Shown piece after piece: positions 14,965 to 38,539 of a DNA stretch of 64,000 nt (position 1 is its first letter; every line of letters starts with the position of its first letter). Source of the stretch: Nitrososphaerales archaeon (GTDB lineage Archaea; Thermoproteota; Nitrososphaeria; Nitrososphaerales; UBA213). The notes under the pieces were generated by a model that saw only the letters and a list, made by a program, of their open reading frames with translations, was not told the DNA's origin and ran no database searches. The stretch spans positions 768,001 to 832,000 of the forward strand of contig CBDAOC010000020.1 of assembly GCA_965197925.1 (NCBI GenBank). Reading direction: 5' to 3'. The position numbers were made by a program, and so were the translations under genes.

Positions 14965-15471
14965 CTACAAAAAGAGAACCGGTAAGTATAATGAATTTAT
15001 ATGTTCCAGCTTAAAATCGCTAATTCTGAAATCTGCTATATCATCTGCAAATTTCTCTACCAAACGTGATTCCGATTTAAGGCTAGTACTTCTTGAGTCA
15101 TGACCCATCAATACCGCCACTTGCCATTCACCACCAAGACCTGCAACCAAAACACACGTTGACAAACTTTTGGCATATTCCTTCACACGCTCCAATGTAG
15201 AACTAAAGTCCTTTGTTGCTTTGAATCTTATCAGAATCAAATCCAATCGATCCATCTCCTTCTCCTCCGCAAGAACAGCTGTGTAGCCTTTTATCACACC
15301 TTTTTTTTCCAATCTTTCAATTCTCTTCCTAACTGCCCGATCGGTAATATCAAATCCCATGGTCTTGAGCTTATTGGCGATGTCTCTGGAAGGAATACGC
15401 GCATTCTTATTCAGCATTTCCAGTACAATGGTATCAATCCTATCTAGTCCGGAAAACTCCATCCCCGCCAT
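14965..15471 (-). CDS. Lrp/AsnC family transcriptional regulator
   Basis: LDRIDTIVLEMLNKNARIP...AVRKRIERLEKKGVIKGY. Confidence 0.9.
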   Translation of the reverse strand: MAGMEFSGLDRIDTIVLEMLNKNARIPSRDIANKLKTMGFDITDRAVRKRIERLEKKGVIKGYTAVLAEEKEMDRLDLILIRFKATKDFSSTLERVKEYAKSLSTCVLVAGLGGEWQVAVLMGHDSRSTSLKSESRLVEKFADDIADFRISDFKLEHINSLYLPVLFL

Positions 15472-15943: not shown

Positions 15944-17841
15944 TTACTCCATTGGCAAGGTAAAGTAGACGGCGGTACCGATCCCAATATCACTTTCAAC
16001 ATAAATCCTTCCATTATGACCATCCACAATTCCCTTACAAATAGCCAATCCTAGTCCGGAGCCTTCCTTTTTGCGTGTACTTGTATCTGCCTGATAGAAT
16101 TTTTTGAACAACCCTTCCTGCATACCTTTGGGAATTCCGACTCCATTATCCTTTACGCTAAATAATGCTTCATCCCCTACATCCTTAATTCCTACCTCAA
16201 TGATACCTTTCTGTTCTGGAACAAACCGGATGGCATTTTTGATCAAATTTGTTAAGACTTGACCTATTCTGTCGGGGTCACATTTTACCTTCATGGCTTT
16301 CTCAATCTGCGCATTCAGCTTCACTCCAATCCTATCAGCACTCGGCGTCATAATCTCTATAGCCTTGCTGATTAACTGATCAGCGTCGACGGTGACCACA
16401 TTAAACTTCAGTTGGCCCAGTTCAAGCCTCCTAGCATCGAGAAGATCCTGAATCAACTGTGAAAGTGAGAGGGAGCTCTGATACATAATTCTAATTTTTC
16501 CCAGTTGTTCCTCAGTTAAATCTCCCAACATACCATCCAGCAGGAGCTCACTGTAACCCTGAATAGGAACCAGGGGGTCTTTAGCTCATGCGTTATCATT
16601 GCCAGGAACTCATCTTTTGCTTTGTCAATCTCCTTGGACTGTTCAATCTTTTCCTTCATTGCACGAGATAAGAGATTGAAACTCTTTACCAAACTACCAA
16701 CCTCATCCTTGCTATTGTGTTGAATTTGAATTCCAATCTCACCTTTCTGTATACGCCTAGAGACATCCATCATTTTCGTGATGGGGGACAGGGATCTTCT
16801 AATGACAAGACCAACAGAAACGAATACGGATCCACTGGATATTGCCAGGGTGTAAAAGATCTGGTTGGAGAAATCATTTTTGGATATATTATCTTCTCGC
16901 ATCAAAGATATCAGATTTAAATGCAGTCCGATCAGTGGGTCCATGTTTGATTCCAGGAAATCCAAGGAATTCTGAAACTGTTCTGTGCGAACTCCCCCAT
17001 TTGAAACAACAAGCAAGTTCTCCTTTAATGGTACCCAACTTTCCTTTACTTCCTCCCAATCTCCTTGCAATTCCGTGGGAATAGGTCTCACATAGTTACC
17101 GGTGATATCAGACGTGCCTCCCTCCAACATAATCTCCAAATAAGAATCGAACTGGGTCACGAGACGTGACAATTCTAATGCCAATTCTTCCTGTTCAACA
17201 GCTCCAAAACGTTCGGTTGATTGTCCGGTAACCTCAAGGGTGTATGTAAGTAGACGGTGACCAAGCGCTTCCATTACCTTTGAGACTGCAACTTGTTCAA
17301 ATCCAAATTGTGTGAAACTGGGAAATGTTGTTGGCCTTACGTTGGCGAAGTCTCCAGCCAACCCTTCCAGTCTATGACTGGCCATCTCCACCTTACTAAT
17401 AAGATCATCACTGTTTTGAACCACATAATCTCTAGAATTAAGAAGTTCAAGATTGAAGACCTGTTTTTCGGCTACGACCAAAGAATTTTGCTTATAGTTA
17501 CTCCATCTATTCAAAACATTTTGATGTAGATCTGGAGACAAATGGGCTATTGAGTTGACCCTTGAACCATTCACAACTCCCCCTTTATCCAATAGATCGG
17601 AGGAAGTTTGGTACAAATCTACCAATTCTAAAATATCTTTTCTATTCTTAGATTCACCATCTGCCACCTGTAGTGAATGTTCTCTAATCTTCTGTACGAA
17701 AAATATTTGTTTATTGGCCAAATCGACAGTTATGGCGTCAGCCTGGCCCAGGTCATTGAAATAAGCAAGAACAGAAATATTAAGAATTACAATTCCCACT
17801 ATTGCACTGGTAATTAGCAGTATTTTTGATAATAATTTCAT
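15944..17841 (-). pseudogene. Sensor histidine kinase (NarX/PilJ-like extracellular helical domains, HAMP, HisKA, HATPase) with a -1 frameshift just after the phospho-His
   Basis: THELKTP then frame break at the G5 run 16573-16577; adding one base restores LKTPLVPIQGYSELLLDGMLG and joins NLIKNA, DNGVGI, GSGLGL. Confidence 0.85.
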
Positions 17842-17983
17842 CTAGTCCTTACCCTTATCCCAAAAATTTTGGATGGATCATCAACATAAGGATTAGTATG
17901 TCTCTAAGAATTATAACTAGTCTTGATCTTGTTAACTCCTCATTCCGATAAATAGAAAATAAACCAAGTTTAAATCACTCATT

Positions 17984-18395
17984 TTGTTATCTCAAACAAT
18001 GAGAGAAAATGAGGATATCCAAAGGGAATTCAGAAAGGAGGTCACGGGGATATTGAGAACATTGCAGACCTCATGTGATATCTTAAGAGAAGGAATGGAT
18101 AACCAAGCAATAGCAGAAATTGTAAAATACTTTCATAAATTCAAAGGGGTTGCGGGAATGATGGATTATTCGCACATGTCGGAGCTGGCTGGAGAAATGG
18201 AATCAATCTCGAAACTTCTCATGGAATATAAGATCCGATTCCATGGAATATAAGATCCGATTCCAGCCAGAAATCGCATCTTTGCTAGCTGAGAGCACAA
18301 ATCTACTCCAAAAATATGTAGAAACGGATTTTGAGGAGAGGAATGAACCCATGCTTGAGGATTTAAGAAAGTTAGCAAACAATCCCATAAAATGA
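17984..18395 (+). pseudogene. Hpt (histidine phosphotransfer) protein broken by a 22-bp tandem duplication
   Basis: FHKFKGVAGMM Hpt motif; ATGGAATATAAGATCCGATTCC duplicated at 18221-18264; removing one copy extends the ORF to TGA 18393-18395. Confidence 0.85.
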
Positions 18396-18517: not shown

Positions 18518-18559
<42 letters not shown>

Positions 18560-19159
18560 GAATCGAAGCCATCGGATGGATTTGGTAATCATTGGATTGT
18601 GTTATATTAATTGGACTTGCGTTTGAACATGATCAAAAGGTAAAAACTAAACCTAGCTGTCCTAGTAAGAGGGATAACCACCATACGCAATCCAAAAATC
18701 CCATCAAGTCCTAATAAGCCCAGGCAAAGGCAAGTAAAAATTACCTATTAACTTCTCTGCTTGCCCTTTCGAATAGAGAATCTGTATCTTGTTCATGCTT
18801 TCTTTCGTTTTCTGAAAACTTTTCAAATCCCTTTCTGAATGTATCAACGATTTCTCTAAATTTTGATTGAATTGATTCTGTGCTCTAAACGTCGGTAGTA
18901 TATCTTTGATTTTTATCTTTAATTAATACAGTACAGAAGTAATTAGGATTTGATAGAATCTTTGTAGAAATAGAATCAACAACCTAAGGATATTTCTACA
19001 TCTTATTTATCGAATAAAATGAGTCAATTCGGCAAAAGCCGTTAAAGTATTAAATTGTATCTGCAGTAGGTCCAAAAAAAGGGATAAAAAGCAGGTTTTG
19101 CAAGAAATAAGGGCTTTAACCCCGTAATTTTCTTATGGAGCATGTTATTTATGGATGCA

Positions 19160-19575
19160 AACACGTTATTTGCGTATCATTTTACGTTATTTTATGGGTT
19201 GTCACGTTATTAACGTGGAATTTTACGTTATTTTATGGGTTGTCACGTTATTAACGTGGAATTTTACGTTATCTATGTGTCCAATCACATTATTTAGAGC
19301 CAATTTACGTTATTTTATTTATAAAAACAGCATTTTTGGGGTTTAGACACGTTATTTACGTTATTTACGTTATTAACGTAATTTTACGTTATTTACGTTA
19401 TTTACGTTATTAACGTAATTTTACGTTAATTCTCTCGATTTTACACCTCGTATTTAGGTACGAATCTGACAAGCAAAAAATAACGGAAATAACGTAAAAT
19501 TACGTTAATAACGTAAATAACGTAAATAACGTAATTGAAAGGCAAATAACGTAAAAACATCAAAAATAACGGATT
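19160..19575. repeat. Array of ACGTTA(T) boxes with nested direct repeats (9, 37 and 41 bp) and a 46-bp perfect inverted repeat
   Basis: 41-bp tandem at 19179-19260; 37-bp tandem at 19349-19422; 19349-19394 is the exact reverse complement of 19487-19532. Confidence 0.95.
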
Positions 19576-20236
19576 ATAATGAGTCGAGGAAGGCTTTTAC
19601 GAATGGATCTTGGGTTTGGCGCTTCATTTTATTGACCTTTGCAATACAATTAATGGTCGGGATGACATGAACTCACATTAATTCAACCTATATCACTAAA
19701 CTATAACCGTTCAACAAAAAGTTGATAGCCATAGACAATTTCACAATTTGAAACAATGAGGTTATTGTACTCCCAACCAGTAAAATAATGATTGTCCCAT
19801 TTGGTAATTTTCTTCAAGAATGATCCGTTACTCTCTTTTTCACCCTACTGCTCTATCTAAAATTTGCTGTACGAATCACATCCCAACACCTTCATATCTT
19901 TAGTGATGTGGTGAACAAATCCCAATAAGGGCAAAAGCAGTGTTTGGCGGTCAGCTGTTAATATCAGTGGTTCTATCAAAATACTTTTCGTCAGTGGATC
20001 CGAATTAGAGTACGCCACTTCTATATGCCCTCCTTATCTGAACACAACAAATATTATTTTATTACTGATCCAGTCACCACAGAGGTTATAGTGCAACTAA
20101 GATGGTCTCCTGTATATTTATTATGAACCCACACTTCCTTTGGTAAATTATATTGCTTTCCAAAGCCTGGATTAGTAAATATTGGGCCAGATTGATAGAT
20201 AACATTTATCTTTAGTTTCTTGTTAGTATTAGTTCG

Positions 20237-20584
20237 TTGATAACCGACCTTCAGCTCCTTATAGGAGGGATGGAGTGGATCATCATACTATTTTTTGGTC
20301 TATTTGTGATACTGGGCGGTAAAAGACTCCCCAAATTCACAAAGTCGATCGGCAAGGCGGTGGGTGAGTTCCAGAAGGCCAGAAATGAAATGGAGAAGGA
20401 AATAGCCAGAGTAAATAATCCCATGAAGATATCCGTTAACAATCCGGTGTCAAATGAGAGGGAGAAGCTTGAAGCAATTGCAAAGGCCTTACAGATCAAT
20501 ACGGTGGGTAAAACTGATAATGAATTGAGACAGCTGATCAGTAATAATGTAAATCCCAAGACTGATGAAAACGTTTCACTTTAG
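20237..20584 (+). CDS. tatA: Twin-arginine translocase TatA/E subunit
   Basis: GGMEWIIIL...LGGKRLPKFTKSIGKAVGEFQKAR. Confidence 0.9.
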   Translation: MITDLQLLIGGMEWIIILFFGLFVILGGKRLPKFTKSIGKAVGEFQKARNEMEKEIARVNNPMKISVNNPVSNEREKLEAIAKALQINTVGKTDNELRQLISNNVNPKTDENVSL

Positions 20585-30675: not shown

Positions 30676-33210
30676 ATGCTAAAGTACAGATGCCCAGACT
30701 GCAAAGGATCCCTCAATACGGACAAGATTTTTGATGGGCGTGTCCTGTTTTCCTGCAATAACTGCTCCTTGTATTCACTTGTCCCATTCAATGCAGATCT
30801 CGATGGAACATACATGGATTTTCTTGAACTGTATGATAACGGTGGAGATGAATTCACCACCAATAATCTCGAAGCACTTCTAGAGAGGGAAAAGATCCTG
30901 AGACCAAGAGAAGAGGTTGAAGCTATGCTACAGAACAATGGTGGTGACACCTTGATTAGAAATGTACTATCATCTAGGCGTGATTATGTAGTCGATTACA
31001 AAGCAATTGATGAACCCCTGCCGGAGATCGGCTGTTCTGCACATGAACTGGTAAATAGTGTATTAGCAGAGACTTTGGCCTGCAAAGGAATAGAACCATT
31101 GTTCAAATTTCAGGAAGAGGTAATCAAAAAAATTCTTGTGGGCAAAGATATAGTGATAGTTGCTCCAACAGCATCAGGTAAGACAGAGGCTTTTACCATT
31201 CCCATTCTGCATAATATTGCCAATGAAATATCACACTTCGGGTCATTACGAACTGGACAAGGCAGTATAAAGGCAATTTTTGTTTACCCAACAAAGGCAC
31301 TTGCCAGGGACCAGATGGCTAAGATAAACCAATTTGCCAAGCCGCTCGGTATCAGGATAGCTACCTTTGACGGTGATACACCATCCAGAGATAGAGATCT
31401 GATCCTGTCAAACCCACCGGACATAATTGTTACCAACTTTGACATTTTACATTATCATTTTCTACATAGAACAAGGTTTGCCAGATTGTTGAGAAGTGCG
31501 AAATGCCTGGTTGTTGATGAAGCACATGTCTATACTGGAATATTTGGTTCCAACATTCACTACATAATTAGACGGCTGCGACGCTTCTGCACAGGTCTAC
31601 AGATAATAGCCGCATCGGCAACTCTACCAAATGCAAAGGAGTTTTGTGAAAAGTTATTCCACTGTGATATGGATATTGTGCTAGGCAGGGGCAGAAAGGG
31701 TAGGATCTATTTTTCGATCCTATTCCCATCTTTGAGAACACAACGCTCCCTTATGCTGGATCTGGTAAAGGGACTAACATCAAATTCGCATAAGGTAATT
31801 TCGTTCTCAAACTCACATATCGGTGCTGAACTGCTTGCATTTTACGCATCAAAACAAGGTGTGAAGATAGGAGTGCATAGAGCTGGGCTAATGCCCAACG
31901 TAAGGAAGAGTGTGGAGGATGACTTTAAGCATGGAGACTTGATGGCTCTATCCTCAACACCAACACTCGAATTGGGAATTGATATTGGTGTTGTGGATGG
32001 GATAGTTTCCAGTTTGGTTTCCATCAACAGGCTGATGCAACGCTTTGGAAGAGCTGCAAGGCGTGACCAACACGGCTATGCATTTCTTGCTCTGGGAAAC
32101 GATCCAATCAGTCAATACTACAAAAACCACCCAGAAGATTACCTTAATGATTTCGAATATGCTTACACGGATCCAACTAACCCTTTCGTGGAGGAATTTC
32201 AATTATTAGCAATGACATGCGATAAACCCTTGAGCTTGGAGGAGGCCAATCAGCATAATGAAACTGTCAGGAAACTTGAGAACAGGCATCTGATACATAT
32301 TTCAAATAAGAAGTTTGTTGCAGATCGCAGGGAAGCAATAAGGTTCCTTAATGAATTTAGCATTAGGGGAGTAGGGAAAAATATAGACATTATTTTAAAT
32401 AATAAAAAAGTTGGTGAACGCAACTTACCCCTTGCACTGGAAGAGCTGCATGACGGAGCAGTGTATTTCCTTAGTGGTAGAAGATATATGGTCAACAAGT
32501 TAACAATTGGCAAACATAAAGCAGAGATAATGAATCTCCCACAGCATTATCCATACTACACGAAAGCACTGACAGATGAATGGCCCAACATAGACAAGGT
32601 TTATGAGACAAAAAGGGTCTTGGGCATAGAGGTTGTATACTGTTCACTTCATATAAGAAAGAGAGTTATGGGTTATGTGAATATTGAGTTGGGAGCAGAA
32701 GTTGCCAAAGGAAAGAAGGTTCTTCTGGAAGAACCGTTTGAGTATAATTTTGACACAAAAGGTTTTGTTTTCAGAGCCCCCAGACCAGCGGATTTGATTG
32801 GTTCAGCCAAAGATCCATTATATGTAGAGATGAGCAGCTATCACGCCGCAGAACATGTTGTTATTGAAGGAAGCAGCATGATAACTGGGGGTGCATCACA
32901 GGATCTTGGGGGTATATCATTGGGTTCTTCTGGCCTGATATTCGTCTATGATTCAAGCGTTGGAGGAAATGGAGCAAGCAAGGTATTATTTGATAGATTA
33001 GAAAAGGCATTTGTTAGGGGTAAGCGTATTTTGAGTGAATGTCTCTGCAGTAACGAAAGTGGATGTCCAAGATGCACGTATTCATACAGATGCGGAAACA
33101 ACAATGAATACCTCCACAAGTACGCGTCATTGGAAGTATACAACAGGATACTGGAGAATGAACGGACAGATGTAGGAGAGCCTGAAGAAGGAGAAAGGTC
33201 GTTAGTATGA
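30676..33210 (+). CDS. DEAD/DEAH-box helicase with C-terminal DUF1998 (Hrq1/MrfA/SftH family)
   Basis: APTASGKT, DEAH, SAT, TLELGIDIG, QRFGRAAR, YD..GGNG, CLC...GCPRC. Confidence 0.95.
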   Translation: MLKYRCPDCKGSLNTDKIFDGRVLFSCNNCSLYSLVPFNADLDGTYMDFLELYDNGGDEFTTNNLEALLEREKILRPREEVEAMLQNNGGDTLIRNVLSSRRDYVVDYKAIDEPLPEIGCSAHELVNSVLAETLACKGIEPLFKFQEEVIKKILVGKDIVIVAPTASGKTEAFTIPILHNIANEISHFGSLRTGQGSIKAIFVYPTKALARDQMAKINQFAKPLGIRIATFDGDTPSRDRDLILSNPPDIIVTNFDILHYHFLHRTRFARLLRSAKCLVVDEAHVYTGIFGSNIHYIIRRLRRFCTGLQIIAASATLPNAKEFCEKLFHCDMDIVLGRGRKGRIYFSILFPSLRTQRSLMLDLVKGLTSNSHKVISFSNSHIGAELLAFYASKQGVKIGVHRAGLMPNVRKSVEDDFKHGDLMALSSTPTLELGIDIGVVDGIVSSLVSINRLMQRFGRAARRDQHGYAFLALGNDPISQYYKNHPEDYLNDFEYAYTDPTNPFVEEFQLLAMTCDKPLSLEEANQHNETVRKLENRHLIHISNKKFVADRREAIRFLNEFSIRGVGKNIDIILNNKKVGERNLPLALEELHDGAVYFLSGRRYMVNKLTIGKHKAEIMNLPQHYPYYTKALTDEWPNIDKVYETKRVLGIEVVYCSLHIRKRVMGYVNIELGAEVAKGKKVLLEEPFEYNFDTKGFVFRAPRPADLIGSAKDPLYVEMSSYHAAEHVVIEGSSMITGGASQDLGGISLGSSGLIFVYDSSVGGNGASKVLFDRLEKAFVRGKRILSECLCSNESGCPRCTYSYRCGNNNEYLHKYASLEVYNRILENERTDVGEPEEGERSLV

Positions 33211-33259
33211 TTACCCACTATCCTTCCCTTTAAATATAGTTATAGCACAATTAACCTTA

Positions 33260-34732
33260 ATGCAGAAGAGTAAGCATACACTACTCTGTGTTACTTTTAT
33301 TGCATTGGCTTTCCTCTTATTGGCCACAACGAACCTTTCGCTGAATTATGCCGATGCACAGAGCATAACGCTCTCAGTATCGGCGATGGACGCCGGCGGA
33401 AAATTTTTTGGATCCCAAATAGTGCAAGTAGTAGTTGATGCCCCAGCCCTGAGAGACACCGAGGCCAGCCCTGGTTCGTTAATAGTTAATGATGTGAATG
33501 TACCCTTGGTGCATTTGTCTGACAGTAGATGGTATGCATTCATTGCCGATGGAAACACATTCACAACTCTTGCCAATATAGCTGGTCTCCCGGGTAACAG
33601 CGATGGTGAATTTTGGATCATTGGTCCAAATGGAAAGAATCTGTTATTCCCATCTCTCCCTGTTGCATTTGGTCATAATCCCGCAACTGGTAGGATGAAC
33701 CCTAACCTTGACTTGAATGGTGATTGTCCAGCAACAATGAATGCTCAAGATCCTTGTGTTGAATGGCCTTACATAAGACTATTCAATTTATTTGAGAACG
33801 ATCAGGTTTTCATAAGGAATAGTGGTCAATCTGTCAAGTTAGACTATATTAAAACTTCAAGGAGCGATGTTATCCTAACCTTAGATAGAGATTCCTATCC
33901 CGTCAATGCCGAAATTATTTTTGGTATGTCTGACTATATGTGGAACATAAACCCGGTCGAAAGGGATCGTATTCACTTTGCATTCAACAATGGTAATACC
34001 GAGGTTTTCTACCAAGCATCAATATCGTTACCACCTGCAAGCATATCAGGTGCAATGCCCAATTTGGGATTTGATTTCTCACAGATACTCTCCATTGACC
34101 AAGGAGAAACCATCAGATTTGACAATACGATAAATGGTATACCAGAAACTGTCTTGATAGAAACTTATCCTAATTCTGGCAGTTTTGAAAATTTTGACGG
34201 TAGTGCTGATATGTTCGCCAAGGAGAGGGGTGTGCAGTTCAGGTTTGATTATTTTAATACATCCATTTCAGCTGGCATGAGTAGCAGCGATGCGAGCGTA
34301 AGTGTAAGTAAAGAGGAGCCAAAGACAGAAGTAAAAGAAACTCCAGTCGTGGAAGAATTGGAGGAAAAGGTAGAGCCTTCTTCTATAACCGCTCCATACT
34401 CAATAACCGAACTCAAACTTGTAGACATATTAGGAGGATCGCTTAGCAGTGTTAATGTTGAACATCCAGTCTCGGTTCAGAGTACTATCAACAACAATCT
34501 GGATAAAGACCAACCATTTGTTTACATTGTACAGGTGAAGGACGAGAATGAGTTTACTGTTATGCTTACATGGATTAAGGGTGATGTGTATGCGAAAAAG
34601 TCATTTGACCCTGGCATTTCATGGATGCCAGAAACCCATGGTGAATACACAATTGAAATTTTTGTATGGAAGAGCCTAGATGAACCAGGTATATTGCCTC
34701 TCACAAAGAGCATGCAGGTTTCTGTATCTTGA
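33260..34732 (+). CDS. S-layer protein SlaA-like secreted paralogue (short form)
   Basis: FFGSQIVQVVV, WYAFIAD, WPYIRLF, LTLDRDSYP, ETYPNSGSFE, and C-terminal FVYIVQVKDENEFTVMLTWI...IFVWKS. Confidence 0.7.
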   Translation: MQKSKHTLLCVTFIALAFLLLATTNLSLNYADAQSITLSVSAMDAGGKFFGSQIVQVVVDAPALRDTEASPGSLIVNDVNVPLVHLSDSRWYAFIADGNTFTTLANIAGLPGNSDGEFWIIGPNGKNLLFPSLPVAFGHNPATGRMNPNLDLNGDCPATMNAQDPCVEWPYIRLFNLFENDQVFIRNSGQSVKLDYIKTSRSDVILTLDRDSYPVNAEIIFGMSDYMWNINPVERDRIHFAFNNGNTEVFYQASISLPPASISGAMPNLGFDFSQILSIDQGETIRFDNTINGIPETVLIETYPNSGSFENFDGSADMFAKERGVQFRFDYFNTSISAGMSSSDASVSVSKEEPKTEVKETPVVEELEEKVEPSSITAPYSITELKLVDILGGSLSSVNVEHPVSVQSTINNNLDKDQPFVYIVQVKDENEFTVMLTWIKGDVYAKKSFDPGISWMPETHGEYTIEIFVWKSLDEPGILPLTKSMQVSVS

Positions 34733-38039: not shown

Positions 38040-38367
38040 CATTGAGATTCATGCTTGATAGGAACTGGAAAGGGTATAATGAAGGACTGGTAAGGAGAGG
38101 ATTAACTCAGGAGATGCGGGGATCGTTCAAAGGATGAAGAATTTCTGGATTTGGAAATTAAGCGAGAGGACCCTTTACTGAAGCAAAAGGAAGAATTCAA
38201 GCATGTCATTGAGAGTGCTACTCTTGAGCAAATGCAAGAAATGTTAAAGACATTTGCAAGATCATGTTCAGAGAGTAGCAGTAAGTGAAGAAGCGGAACT
38301 ACTAATCATACAGGGATGGAAATTTGTTGGAATATTACCGAACGGCAAGGTTATTCTACAGAAATAA
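38040..38367 (+). pseudogene. Probable C-terminal remnant of an archaeal tyrosine integrase
   Basis: Broken frames give ...TQEMRGSF...EEFLDLEIK... and QRVAVSEEAELLIIQGWKFVGILPNGKVILQK*, like archaeal integrase tails; ends 25 bp before a tRNA. Confidence 0.55.
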
Positions 38368-38392
38368 ATACACCATGAGCTACACCCCTGTG

Positions 38393-38493
38393 GGGCCCGT
38401 AGCTCAGTCAGGTAGAGCACCGGAAGCATTGGTGAAACTTTTAACTTGACTGGAGACATCCGGTGGTCTCGGGATCAATGCCCGACGGGCCCG
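38393..38493 (+). tRNA. tRNA-Lys(UUU) with two introns (38424-38436 at 30/31; 38444-38457 at 37/38)
   Basis: Acceptor GGGCCCG/CGGGCCC-G; removing both introns gives CCGGA-CTTTTAA-TCCGG and a 74-nt cloverleaf; BHB central helices CACC/GGTG and CTTT/GGAG. Confidence 0.9.
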
Positions 38494-38539
38494 CTACTAC
38501 TCTCCGTTCAATACCTCTACCCTGTTTAAGACAACTTTG

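Follow-up and report, generated by a model that had tools for sequence, protein, structure and literature searches.

Iterons of plasmid origins are 17-22 bp long, and the centromere parC of plasmid R1 consists of two clusters of short repeats around a unique core. According to the portions of the cited reports on which we draw, the iterons of plasmids usually keep phase with the DNA helix (PMC5043065), clusters of archaeal Lrp sites are spaced by two or three helical turns (PMC2995911), and integrating elements are the source of some archaeal origins (PMC5333045). The pRN1 origin, which is located 3' of the rep gene, conserves a stem-loop and not a sequence (PMC4234260, cited portion), and many of the cryptic integrated elements of Thaumarchaeota are described, in the part of the survey cited here, as having no identifiable replication protein (PMC6563490). 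The literature that we searched, supplements (notably that of PMC6563490) excluded, describes neither the box considered below nor any cis-site, be it an origin, a centromere or another, of a plasmid-like element from Thaumarchaeota.

The locus analysed here, denoted E1, is an array of ACGTTAT boxes in a 64,000-nucleotide stretch of DNA (the window) from a Nitrososphaerales archaeon. The features of E1 and its surroundings, in window coordinates, are as follows.

17984-18253, plus strand: Hpt-domain gene (hpt), the left neighbour
18655-18783, no strand given: decayed scrap, context outside the element, with 76% likeness to the 3' terminus of a small ORF (C18:167738-167862)
19142-19355, plus strand: outer left arm, ACGTTAT boxes with 20-21-bp phasing (period 20.6 bp, R 0.995, p 2e-4)
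19179-19272, plus strand: perfect 41-bp tandem duplication of two phased units (pair 19179-19260), present in E1 only
19349-19428, plus strand: inner left arm with a box spacing of 9-10 bp, enlarged in E1 by a perfect 37-bp tandem pair (19349-19422)
19439-19495, plus strand: 57-bp asymmetric core, comprising unique spacer and the first right-arm boxes, common to E2, E3 and, loosely, E4
19480-19573, minus strand: right arm, inverted boxes with 9-10- and 20-bp spacing
19487-19532, minus strand: right half of a perfect 46-bp inverted repeat (partner 19349-19394), absent from the paralogues
19574-19635, minus strand: right flank, kept in E1, E2, E4 and E5, which would encode the final 17 codons and the stop of a putative lost gene
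20237-20584, plus strand: tatA, the right neighbour

The motif count gives exactly 24 ACGTTA or TAACGT hexamers between 19163 and 19552, in agreement with a preliminary description of this DNA that had reported about two dozen boxes in some 410 bp of a gene-free tract; the tract indeed holds no gene between the end of hpt at 18253 and the start of tatA at 20237. The whole 2.91-Mb assembly contains 776 such hexamers, and E1 is the densest cluster of the genome, whereas the genome-wide rate predicts some 0.11 hexamers per 410 bp (Poisson p about 1e-47). The 41-bp pair, the 37-bp pair and the 46-bp inverted repeat are all perfect, as had been claimed, and the box orientation flips cleanly across the spacer, reported as about 50 bp long, which extends without repeats from 19429 to 19480. 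What the preliminary description overlooked is the 20-21-bp phasing, the main order of the array. In the outer left arm, exact boxes lie at 19163, 19184, 19204, 19225, 19245, 19266, 19307 and 19349 and one-mismatch boxes at 19142 and 19287, and the box position at 19328 is decayed. The periods of E1, E2 and E3 are 20.6, 20.5 and 20.4 bp, respectively (R 0.995, 0.99 and 0.96; p 2e-4, 2e-4 and 9e-3 against random placement), so that all three good copies contain helix-phased direct repeats. The boxes of the outer arms are near-identical, whereas adjacent linkers are merely 34-36% alike (36% in E1). Chains of at least five hexamers at steps of 19-23 bp occur five times in the genome and not at all in shuffled contigs; only those of E1 and E2 are long with unlike linkers, the other three being a plain tandem and two five-member chains. 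Near the core the spacing drops to 9-10 bp, and the right arm mirrors the same layout in inverted form. The core is 61-68% AT, which is no more than in the arms.

The 46-bp inverted repeat, previously taken as a key feature, is not one that the family shares: perfect repeats between the two arms reach 46 bp in E1 compared with 12, 9 and 11 bp in E2, E3 and E4, and the fold z-scores of E1 to E4 are -11.9, -5.0, -0.2 and -1.5. Near-perfect tandem repeats of period 12 or more number 141 in this genome. The perfect 41-, 37- and 46-bp repeats of E1 are probably recent and would have arisen by slippage and template switching.

The array had been described as an orphan; it is one of five related elements of about 500 bp in this genome, two of its relatives being well kept and two degenerate.

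E2, C20:117.4-117.9k, minus strand: well kept
E3, C18:129.7-130.1k: well kept
E4, C19:399.4-399.8k: degenerate, with a looser core
E5, C20:970.1-970.3k: degenerate, right flank and a few boxes, no core recognised

These five copies are a real, highly ordered, lineage-confined family of cis-elements. E1, E2 and E3 are 66-79% alike; their cores agree at 45 of 57 positions between E1 and E2, at 51 of 57 between E1 and E3 and at 46 of 57 in the third comparison, and the internal symmetry of the core is lost between copies. In a blind scan for orientation-switching hexamer clusters, the three well-kept copies rank first, third and fifth, and oriC ranks sixth. Homology ends at the element edges, with the exception of an IS scrap left of E2 and E4. 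In the right arm of E4, TGTCAT replaces CGTTAT in several units together, forming the densest such cluster of the genome (8 in 400 bp versus 0.37 expected). Identity between copies is 32/42 in boxes versus 73/93 in linkers, 37/49 versus 53/88, and 42/49 versus 64/86 (p 0.70, 0.05 and 0.09). The boxes are thus not significantly better kept than the linkers, which suggests that the selection that built the array is mostly older than the copying. A genome-wide test of the kind that had been proposed finds the box clustered in the family, and TTACGTTATT occurs 8 times outside it compared with 7.9 expected; this lack of excess argues against a host regulon. A 13-bp palindrome has 5 perfect and 17 one-mismatch sites within the family and 0 perfect and 4 one-mismatch sites elsewhere, as many as shuffles give. 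Two further tandems lie on contig C20: one, immediately to the left of E2, is a perfect 32-bp repeat in 10.3 copies (C20:117992-118320), and the other is a near-perfect 20-bp tandem of about 45 copies (C20:869688-870573).

The copies are flanked by IS and gene scraps and sit at lineage-specific breakpoints. In relatives, tatA directly follows ubiE-MFS (G001, G002) or ubiE (G005), so that the E1 tract is lineage-specific; in the E1 genome, the ubiE and MFS genes are 4 kb off and inverted, and the tract occupies the gap. The translin-like gene next to E3 is present in seven family genomes. It adjoins nnrE back to back in two of them (G005 and G008) and is separated from it by a single gene in G006; here, the two genes are some 6 kb apart, and the interval contains two helicases, an IS and E3. 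None of the 13 family loci counted contains a box cluster (0-4 boxes each). The preliminary description had held that relatives without a conserved array, together with a randomly varying copy number, would point to neutral slippage, and the first of these is what the corresponding intervals of relatives show. At a distance of 1.3 kb from E2 there is a broken tyrosine integrase, after which comes a tRNA-like end.

Several other features of the assembly were noted. At 38080-38500 of the window, a frameshifted integrase tail is followed by a tRNA-like sequence, probably intron-bearing and without an ARAGORN call, that may mark the edge of an island with a MrfA-type helicase pair (30676-34732). 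At 15944-18265, a sensor kinase is split by a frameshift and hpt carries a perfect 22-bp duplication near its end, reflecting decay or sequencing error, and an (ATTG)10.5 microsatellite follows hpt at 18518-18559. Two near-identical broken tyrosine recombinase genes are found at C20:267795-268400 and C20:51275-51634, one of them just after tRNA-Pro. Contigs C14 and C16 are virus-like; C16 carries 28 tRNA genes, and in C14 a non-coding gap of 1 kb holds repeats of its own and five TAACGT boxes, without the core.

The right flank appears to be the end of a lost gene facing the array, judging from its codon pattern. The tail reads on the other strand, pointing at the array, and its stop is at the same place in all four copies that have it (E1, E2, E4 and E5), with a length of 17-50 codons. 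Between E1 and E2, six of the seven changes are at third codon positions and six are synonymous; the E2-E4 comparison is less clean, with 8 of 18 changes at third positions and 10 of 14 changed codons non-synonymous. At the same position, E3 has the end of a different gene, of the secreted-protein type. No homologue of the tail was found by word index or in the family genomes, the ESM Atlas, Pfam or PHROGs, and a comparison with 1.84 billion representatives returned the tail itself and one chance insect protein. Matches to two integrase pseudogenes are weak (E 0.017 and 0.11), and the tail does not resemble the end of an integrase.

Nine public runs from three studies hold at least half of the words of the stretch, and four further runs hold a smaller share (0.07-0.13). 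Logan contigs were compared in four runs from the three studies, one of them perhaps the source sample, and in all four the array pieces match with no differing letter (18569-19208, from 19006 in one run; 19243-19378; and about 19505-20400). A unitig within the 37-bp pair has 1.4-1.8 times the depth of the flanks in the three runs that list it. E2 and E3 sit in longer contigs of the same runs at similar depth, and the contig depth of the copies equals that of their flanks. In these four runs, the matches are piecewise, with no contig across the whole array, and no excision joint at the core is seen. The exact unit count is accordingly supported, short of proven, given the lack of a spanning contig and of long reads and the possible identity of one run with the source sample.

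Beyond this genome, the array was not found. BLAST against 40 relatives returned nothing, a search of eight same-family genomes (other genera, 76-99% complete) did not find it, and the core pattern with two mismatches gave one match in 300 genomes of the order. The triple-box pattern occurs in 10 of 400 other genomes; none of the seven loci inspected has the architecture, and the three others listed are plain 24-27-bp tandems. BLAST with E2 against 400 genomes, scoring two candidates per genome, gave at least 18 matches at E up to 0.01 (best 1.7e-4), 15 of these 18 inside ORFs and none with an array. A left-arm profile matched 7 of 100 genomes at E up to 0.05 with 14-19 bits compared with 112-115 for the family's own copies (10 loci inspected), and a profile of core and right arm matched 3 of 40, at chance level on inspection. 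Viral contigs gave nothing in most scans, and their 23 loci with the spacing pattern are plain tandems or short clusters, none with the core; metagenome contigs gave no match and then five chance matches in bacterial genes, genome contigs none and then one chance match, and plasmids and phages none. A look at thaumarchaeal viruses and plasmids had been proposed; the array did not appear in the viral, plasmid and phage collections scanned. We say not found rather than absent because the nearest genomes belong to other genera and are often fragmented and the scans need exact matches; the contig scans may also omit records very near the E1 genome. Over 50 bp, the right arm resembles a family of secreted-protein genes (E about 2e-3 per genome), a similarity that we attribute to chance.

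An apparent link to a Rep-like family consists of two core matches, one of 12 bp next to TAACGT boxes in G300 and one of 15 bp within its homologue at C15:65.1k. It was set aside as unproven because the motif is exact in only these 2 of 30 loci and missing from the two closest homologues, which are 66-70% identical. The family itself, which bears a wHTH domain and belongs to integrated elements, is present in 32 of 401 genomes of the order (G000:C15:64837-65919; L104:7710-8687; L161-L190); its member in G300 has no Pfam or PHROGs match, and part of the C15 element is duplicated at C20:3-8.5k. In another genome, a candidate origin-like array that does not have the family core occupies a non-coding gap (L103:10700-11100; G339:C1:153.7k): it consists of a perfect 25-bp tandem with TAACGTTA and more boxes, and an MCM gene lies some 0.6 kb away.

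The host chromosome has a canonical oriC elsewhere, with two ORBs upstream of cdc6 at C20:458.26k; the motif that we take to be the ORB is seen there beside cdc6, and the same layout is found upstream of cdc6 in seven of eight same-family genomes, the eighth being cut by a contig end. E1, 329 kb from oriC, and E2, 341 kb from it, are on opposite sides and mirror each other in orientation. No switch of GC, AT or third-position skew is seen at E1 or E2, nor a clear one at oriC, and a 10-bp match between the core and oriC was given no weight. Orc1/cdc6 matches above the cut-off number two, at C20:456.8k and C17:142.2k, neither beside any of E1-E5. At oriC (C20:458150-458420; loci L106-L114), GTTAAC-type boxes flank the ORBs and are kept in seven of eight same-family genomes and in G015; they form a second origin motif that may be bound by the putative product of the adjoining wHTH gene.

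Other known kinds of site fit poorly. An Orc1/Cdc6 (ORB) origin is ruled out, the ORB motif being absent from all five copies, with no G-string pair and no adjacent cdc6, and a parS, parC or SegAB host centromere is not supported, there being no ParB match and no partition operon beside the copies. No initiator gene was found beside any copy, so the absence of neighbouring initiator and partition genes noted before extends to the entire family. The genome has one match to MCM and none to the DUF5906 primase-helicase (PF19263); in a partition search that left out small RHH adaptors, ParB (PF02195) had no match, and two PF13614 ParA-like hits, far from the copies, read as Mrp- and ArsA-type ATPases. 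The earlier exclusion of CRISPR and of an IS end is borne out: no Rfam family matches the tract, which also speaks against a structured RNA (a single tRNA in the window reaches the Rfam threshold), and the element itself matches no IS copy. A casposon end was dismissed, the pPolB remnant at C18:187.5k having no family match nearby, as was a stem-loop origin of the pRN1 type, the fold not being conserved among E1-E4. Lrp/FFRP sites at regulated promoters are not indicated either, the palindromes outside the family being no commoner than in shuffles; a sigma-70 scan, with a model that does not cover archaeal promoters, gave nothing above chance.

What, then, is the family? Two-turn phasing, unlike linkers, three copies and a shared core support the earlier suggestion of an oriented array for protein binding; the further suggestion of a working host origin or centromere fares badly, with oriC elsewhere, no ParB and no array in relatives. 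From the phased boxes, free linkers, two arms and unique core, we propose that many copies of one protein would assemble on one helical face. Phasing alone cannot separate an origin from a partition or recombination site. Our tentative reading, quite possible if short of probable, is that E1 is the relic of an iteron-type origin of a family of integrated plasmid-like elements, its initiator gene lost; the array is probably inactive today. This reading is suggested by the five-member family, the phasing, and E1 and E2 as the only long chains with unlike linkers; by homology that stops at the edges and the concerted box variant of E4, as diverging replicons would show; and by the position of E2 near an integrase remnant and intervals that, for E1 and E3, are closed or differently filled in relatives. 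The scattered copies, the sister with changed boxes, the place 3' of a lost gene and the scrap setting point to a mobile element rather than to the host. Against a relic origin stand the lack of an initiator beside the copies, the single MCM, the lack of DUF5906, the lack of a free element in any scan, and a core that is no AT-richer than the arms, unlike a typical unwinding element.

Under the relic-origin reading, monomers of one element-encoded DNA-binding protein would have occupied the ACGTTAT boxes on one face of the helix, the bound protein would have wrapped or bent both arms towards the core, and strand opening or priming would have started there. The gene with its tail at the right arm may have been the element's own, comparable to the arrangement of pRN1, where the origin is 3' of rep. 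After integration, the element genes would have decayed, and slippage and template switching across the arms would have yielded the perfect 41-, 37- and 46-bp repeats of E1.

The same phasing, core and mobile-element setting would be expected if the arrays were another cis-site of the same lost element family, namely a plasmid-type, parC-like centromere or an attachment site with a filament of recombination factor on its arms. We consider this unlikely. The 9-10-bp inner spacing, two arms and unique core recall parC of R1 and the Xis, Cox and Apl arrays, and E2 is close to an integrase remnant; however, ParB has no match and the ParA-like hits are of other types, the inner symmetry of the core is not kept between copies, no excision joint appears in the four runs, and the gene tail is unlike an integrase end. 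In our estimate, the family is also rather unlikely to be a neutral, dispersed repeat that never bound a protein, its short unit having been multiplied by slippage and spread by IS-driven segmental duplication. Near-identical boxes with dissimilar linkers are not expected from the plain decay of a tandem, all 23 viral hits to the spacing pattern are plain tandems or short clusters without a core, and the two spacings, the orientation switch and the concerted change in E4 would each need a further accident; still, IS copies and perfect tandem duplications abound in the genome, E2 and E4 share their IS scrap, conservation between copies is not box-specific, and no homologue was found elsewhere.

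A working role in the host has also to be weighed. That E1-E3 are functional chromosomal sites (extra origins, or sites of segregation or wrapping) bound by a host protein, for example of the Lrp/AsnC type, seems quite unlikely to us, even though three copies keep their phasing and core with the genes gone, E1 and E2 are mirror-oriented about oriC, an AsnC-type gene (14965-15471) lies 3.7 kb from E1, and the 13-bp palindrome conforms to the abcdeWWWedcba pattern that the cited part of PMC2715240 gives for archaeal Lrp sites. The boxes are not significantly better kept than the linkers, E4 and E5 are degenerate, all five perfect palindromes belong to the family, and the majority of boxes are half-sites whose spacing of 9-10 bp leaves too little room for 13-bp dimer sites; the array was not found in any of the eight same-family genomes, and the mirror symmetry amounts to two points, with strand skews uninformative even at oriC. 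A bolder version would see active sites in the three well-kept copies, either secondary origins that do not depend on Orc1 or centromere-like sites, which the lineage had captured, two of them mirrored about 335 kb either side of oriC, with a protein filament phased by two turns on both arms; we regard it as improbable. An assembly artefact is far less credible still: no contig crosses the whole array, no long reads were seen and there are frameshifts nearby, but the pieces are letter-perfect in four of four runs from three studies, the depth of the tandem unitig is raised, and E2 and E3 lie in longer contigs.

Whatever its origin, the family offers a precise bait, with a defined box, phase and 57-bp core and with E4 as a natural box variant for control. 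Should the family prove to be an origin, it might allow the missing initiator to be traced and might provide a replicon for a group in which genetic tools are scarce; if used by the host, it would be a new kind of archaeal chromosomal site; and as nothing more than a relic it would be the mark of a lost element family, of modest interest.

Compared with described systems, as presented in the cited portions of the sources where one is named, the family shares helix phasing with the iteron origins of P1, F, RK2, R6K and pSC101 (PMC5043065), but E1 differs in its boxes of about 7-9 bp, its second, inverted arm, a core that is not AT-rich, the lack of an identified rep gene or DnaA-type site, and its location in an archaeal chromosome. 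We do not file it as a member of the iteron origins because no adjacent AT-rich unwinding region is apparent, the core being no richer in AT than the arms, and no initiator gene was found beside any copy. With the pRN1 family of Sulfolobus plasmids (PMC4234260), it has in common a non-coding site just 3' of a stop codon and pairing arms around a loop (z about -12 in E1 and -5 in E2), whereas here conservation lies in the boxes and the core, E3 has lost the fold, which is weak in E4, and there is no primase-helicase gene. Orc1/Cdc6 origins (PMC5333045) likewise have oriented boxes about a central region, and oriC too shows an orientation switch in the blind scan, but ORBs are conserved in relatives upstream of cdc6, whereas the E1 family is not conserved and has no ORB, G-string pair or cdc6. 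Archaeal Lrp/FFRP clusters similarly combine a 13-bp palindrome with a central ATT/AAT and two-turn spacing (PMC2715240, PMC2995911); the E1 family differs in having mostly half-sites, many of them 9-10 bp apart, with no promoter or target gene and no sites elsewhere. Like the centromeres (parC of R1, SegAB), it has two short-repeat clusters around a unique core, but no partition operon is beside the copies and the genome gives no ParB match. No intact element with att sites surrounds any copy, and origin sequences are not described in the cited part of PMC6563490; the Thaumarchaeota integrated elements of that survey nevertheless share with the E1 family the same type of host lineage and integrase remnants with tRNA-like ends.
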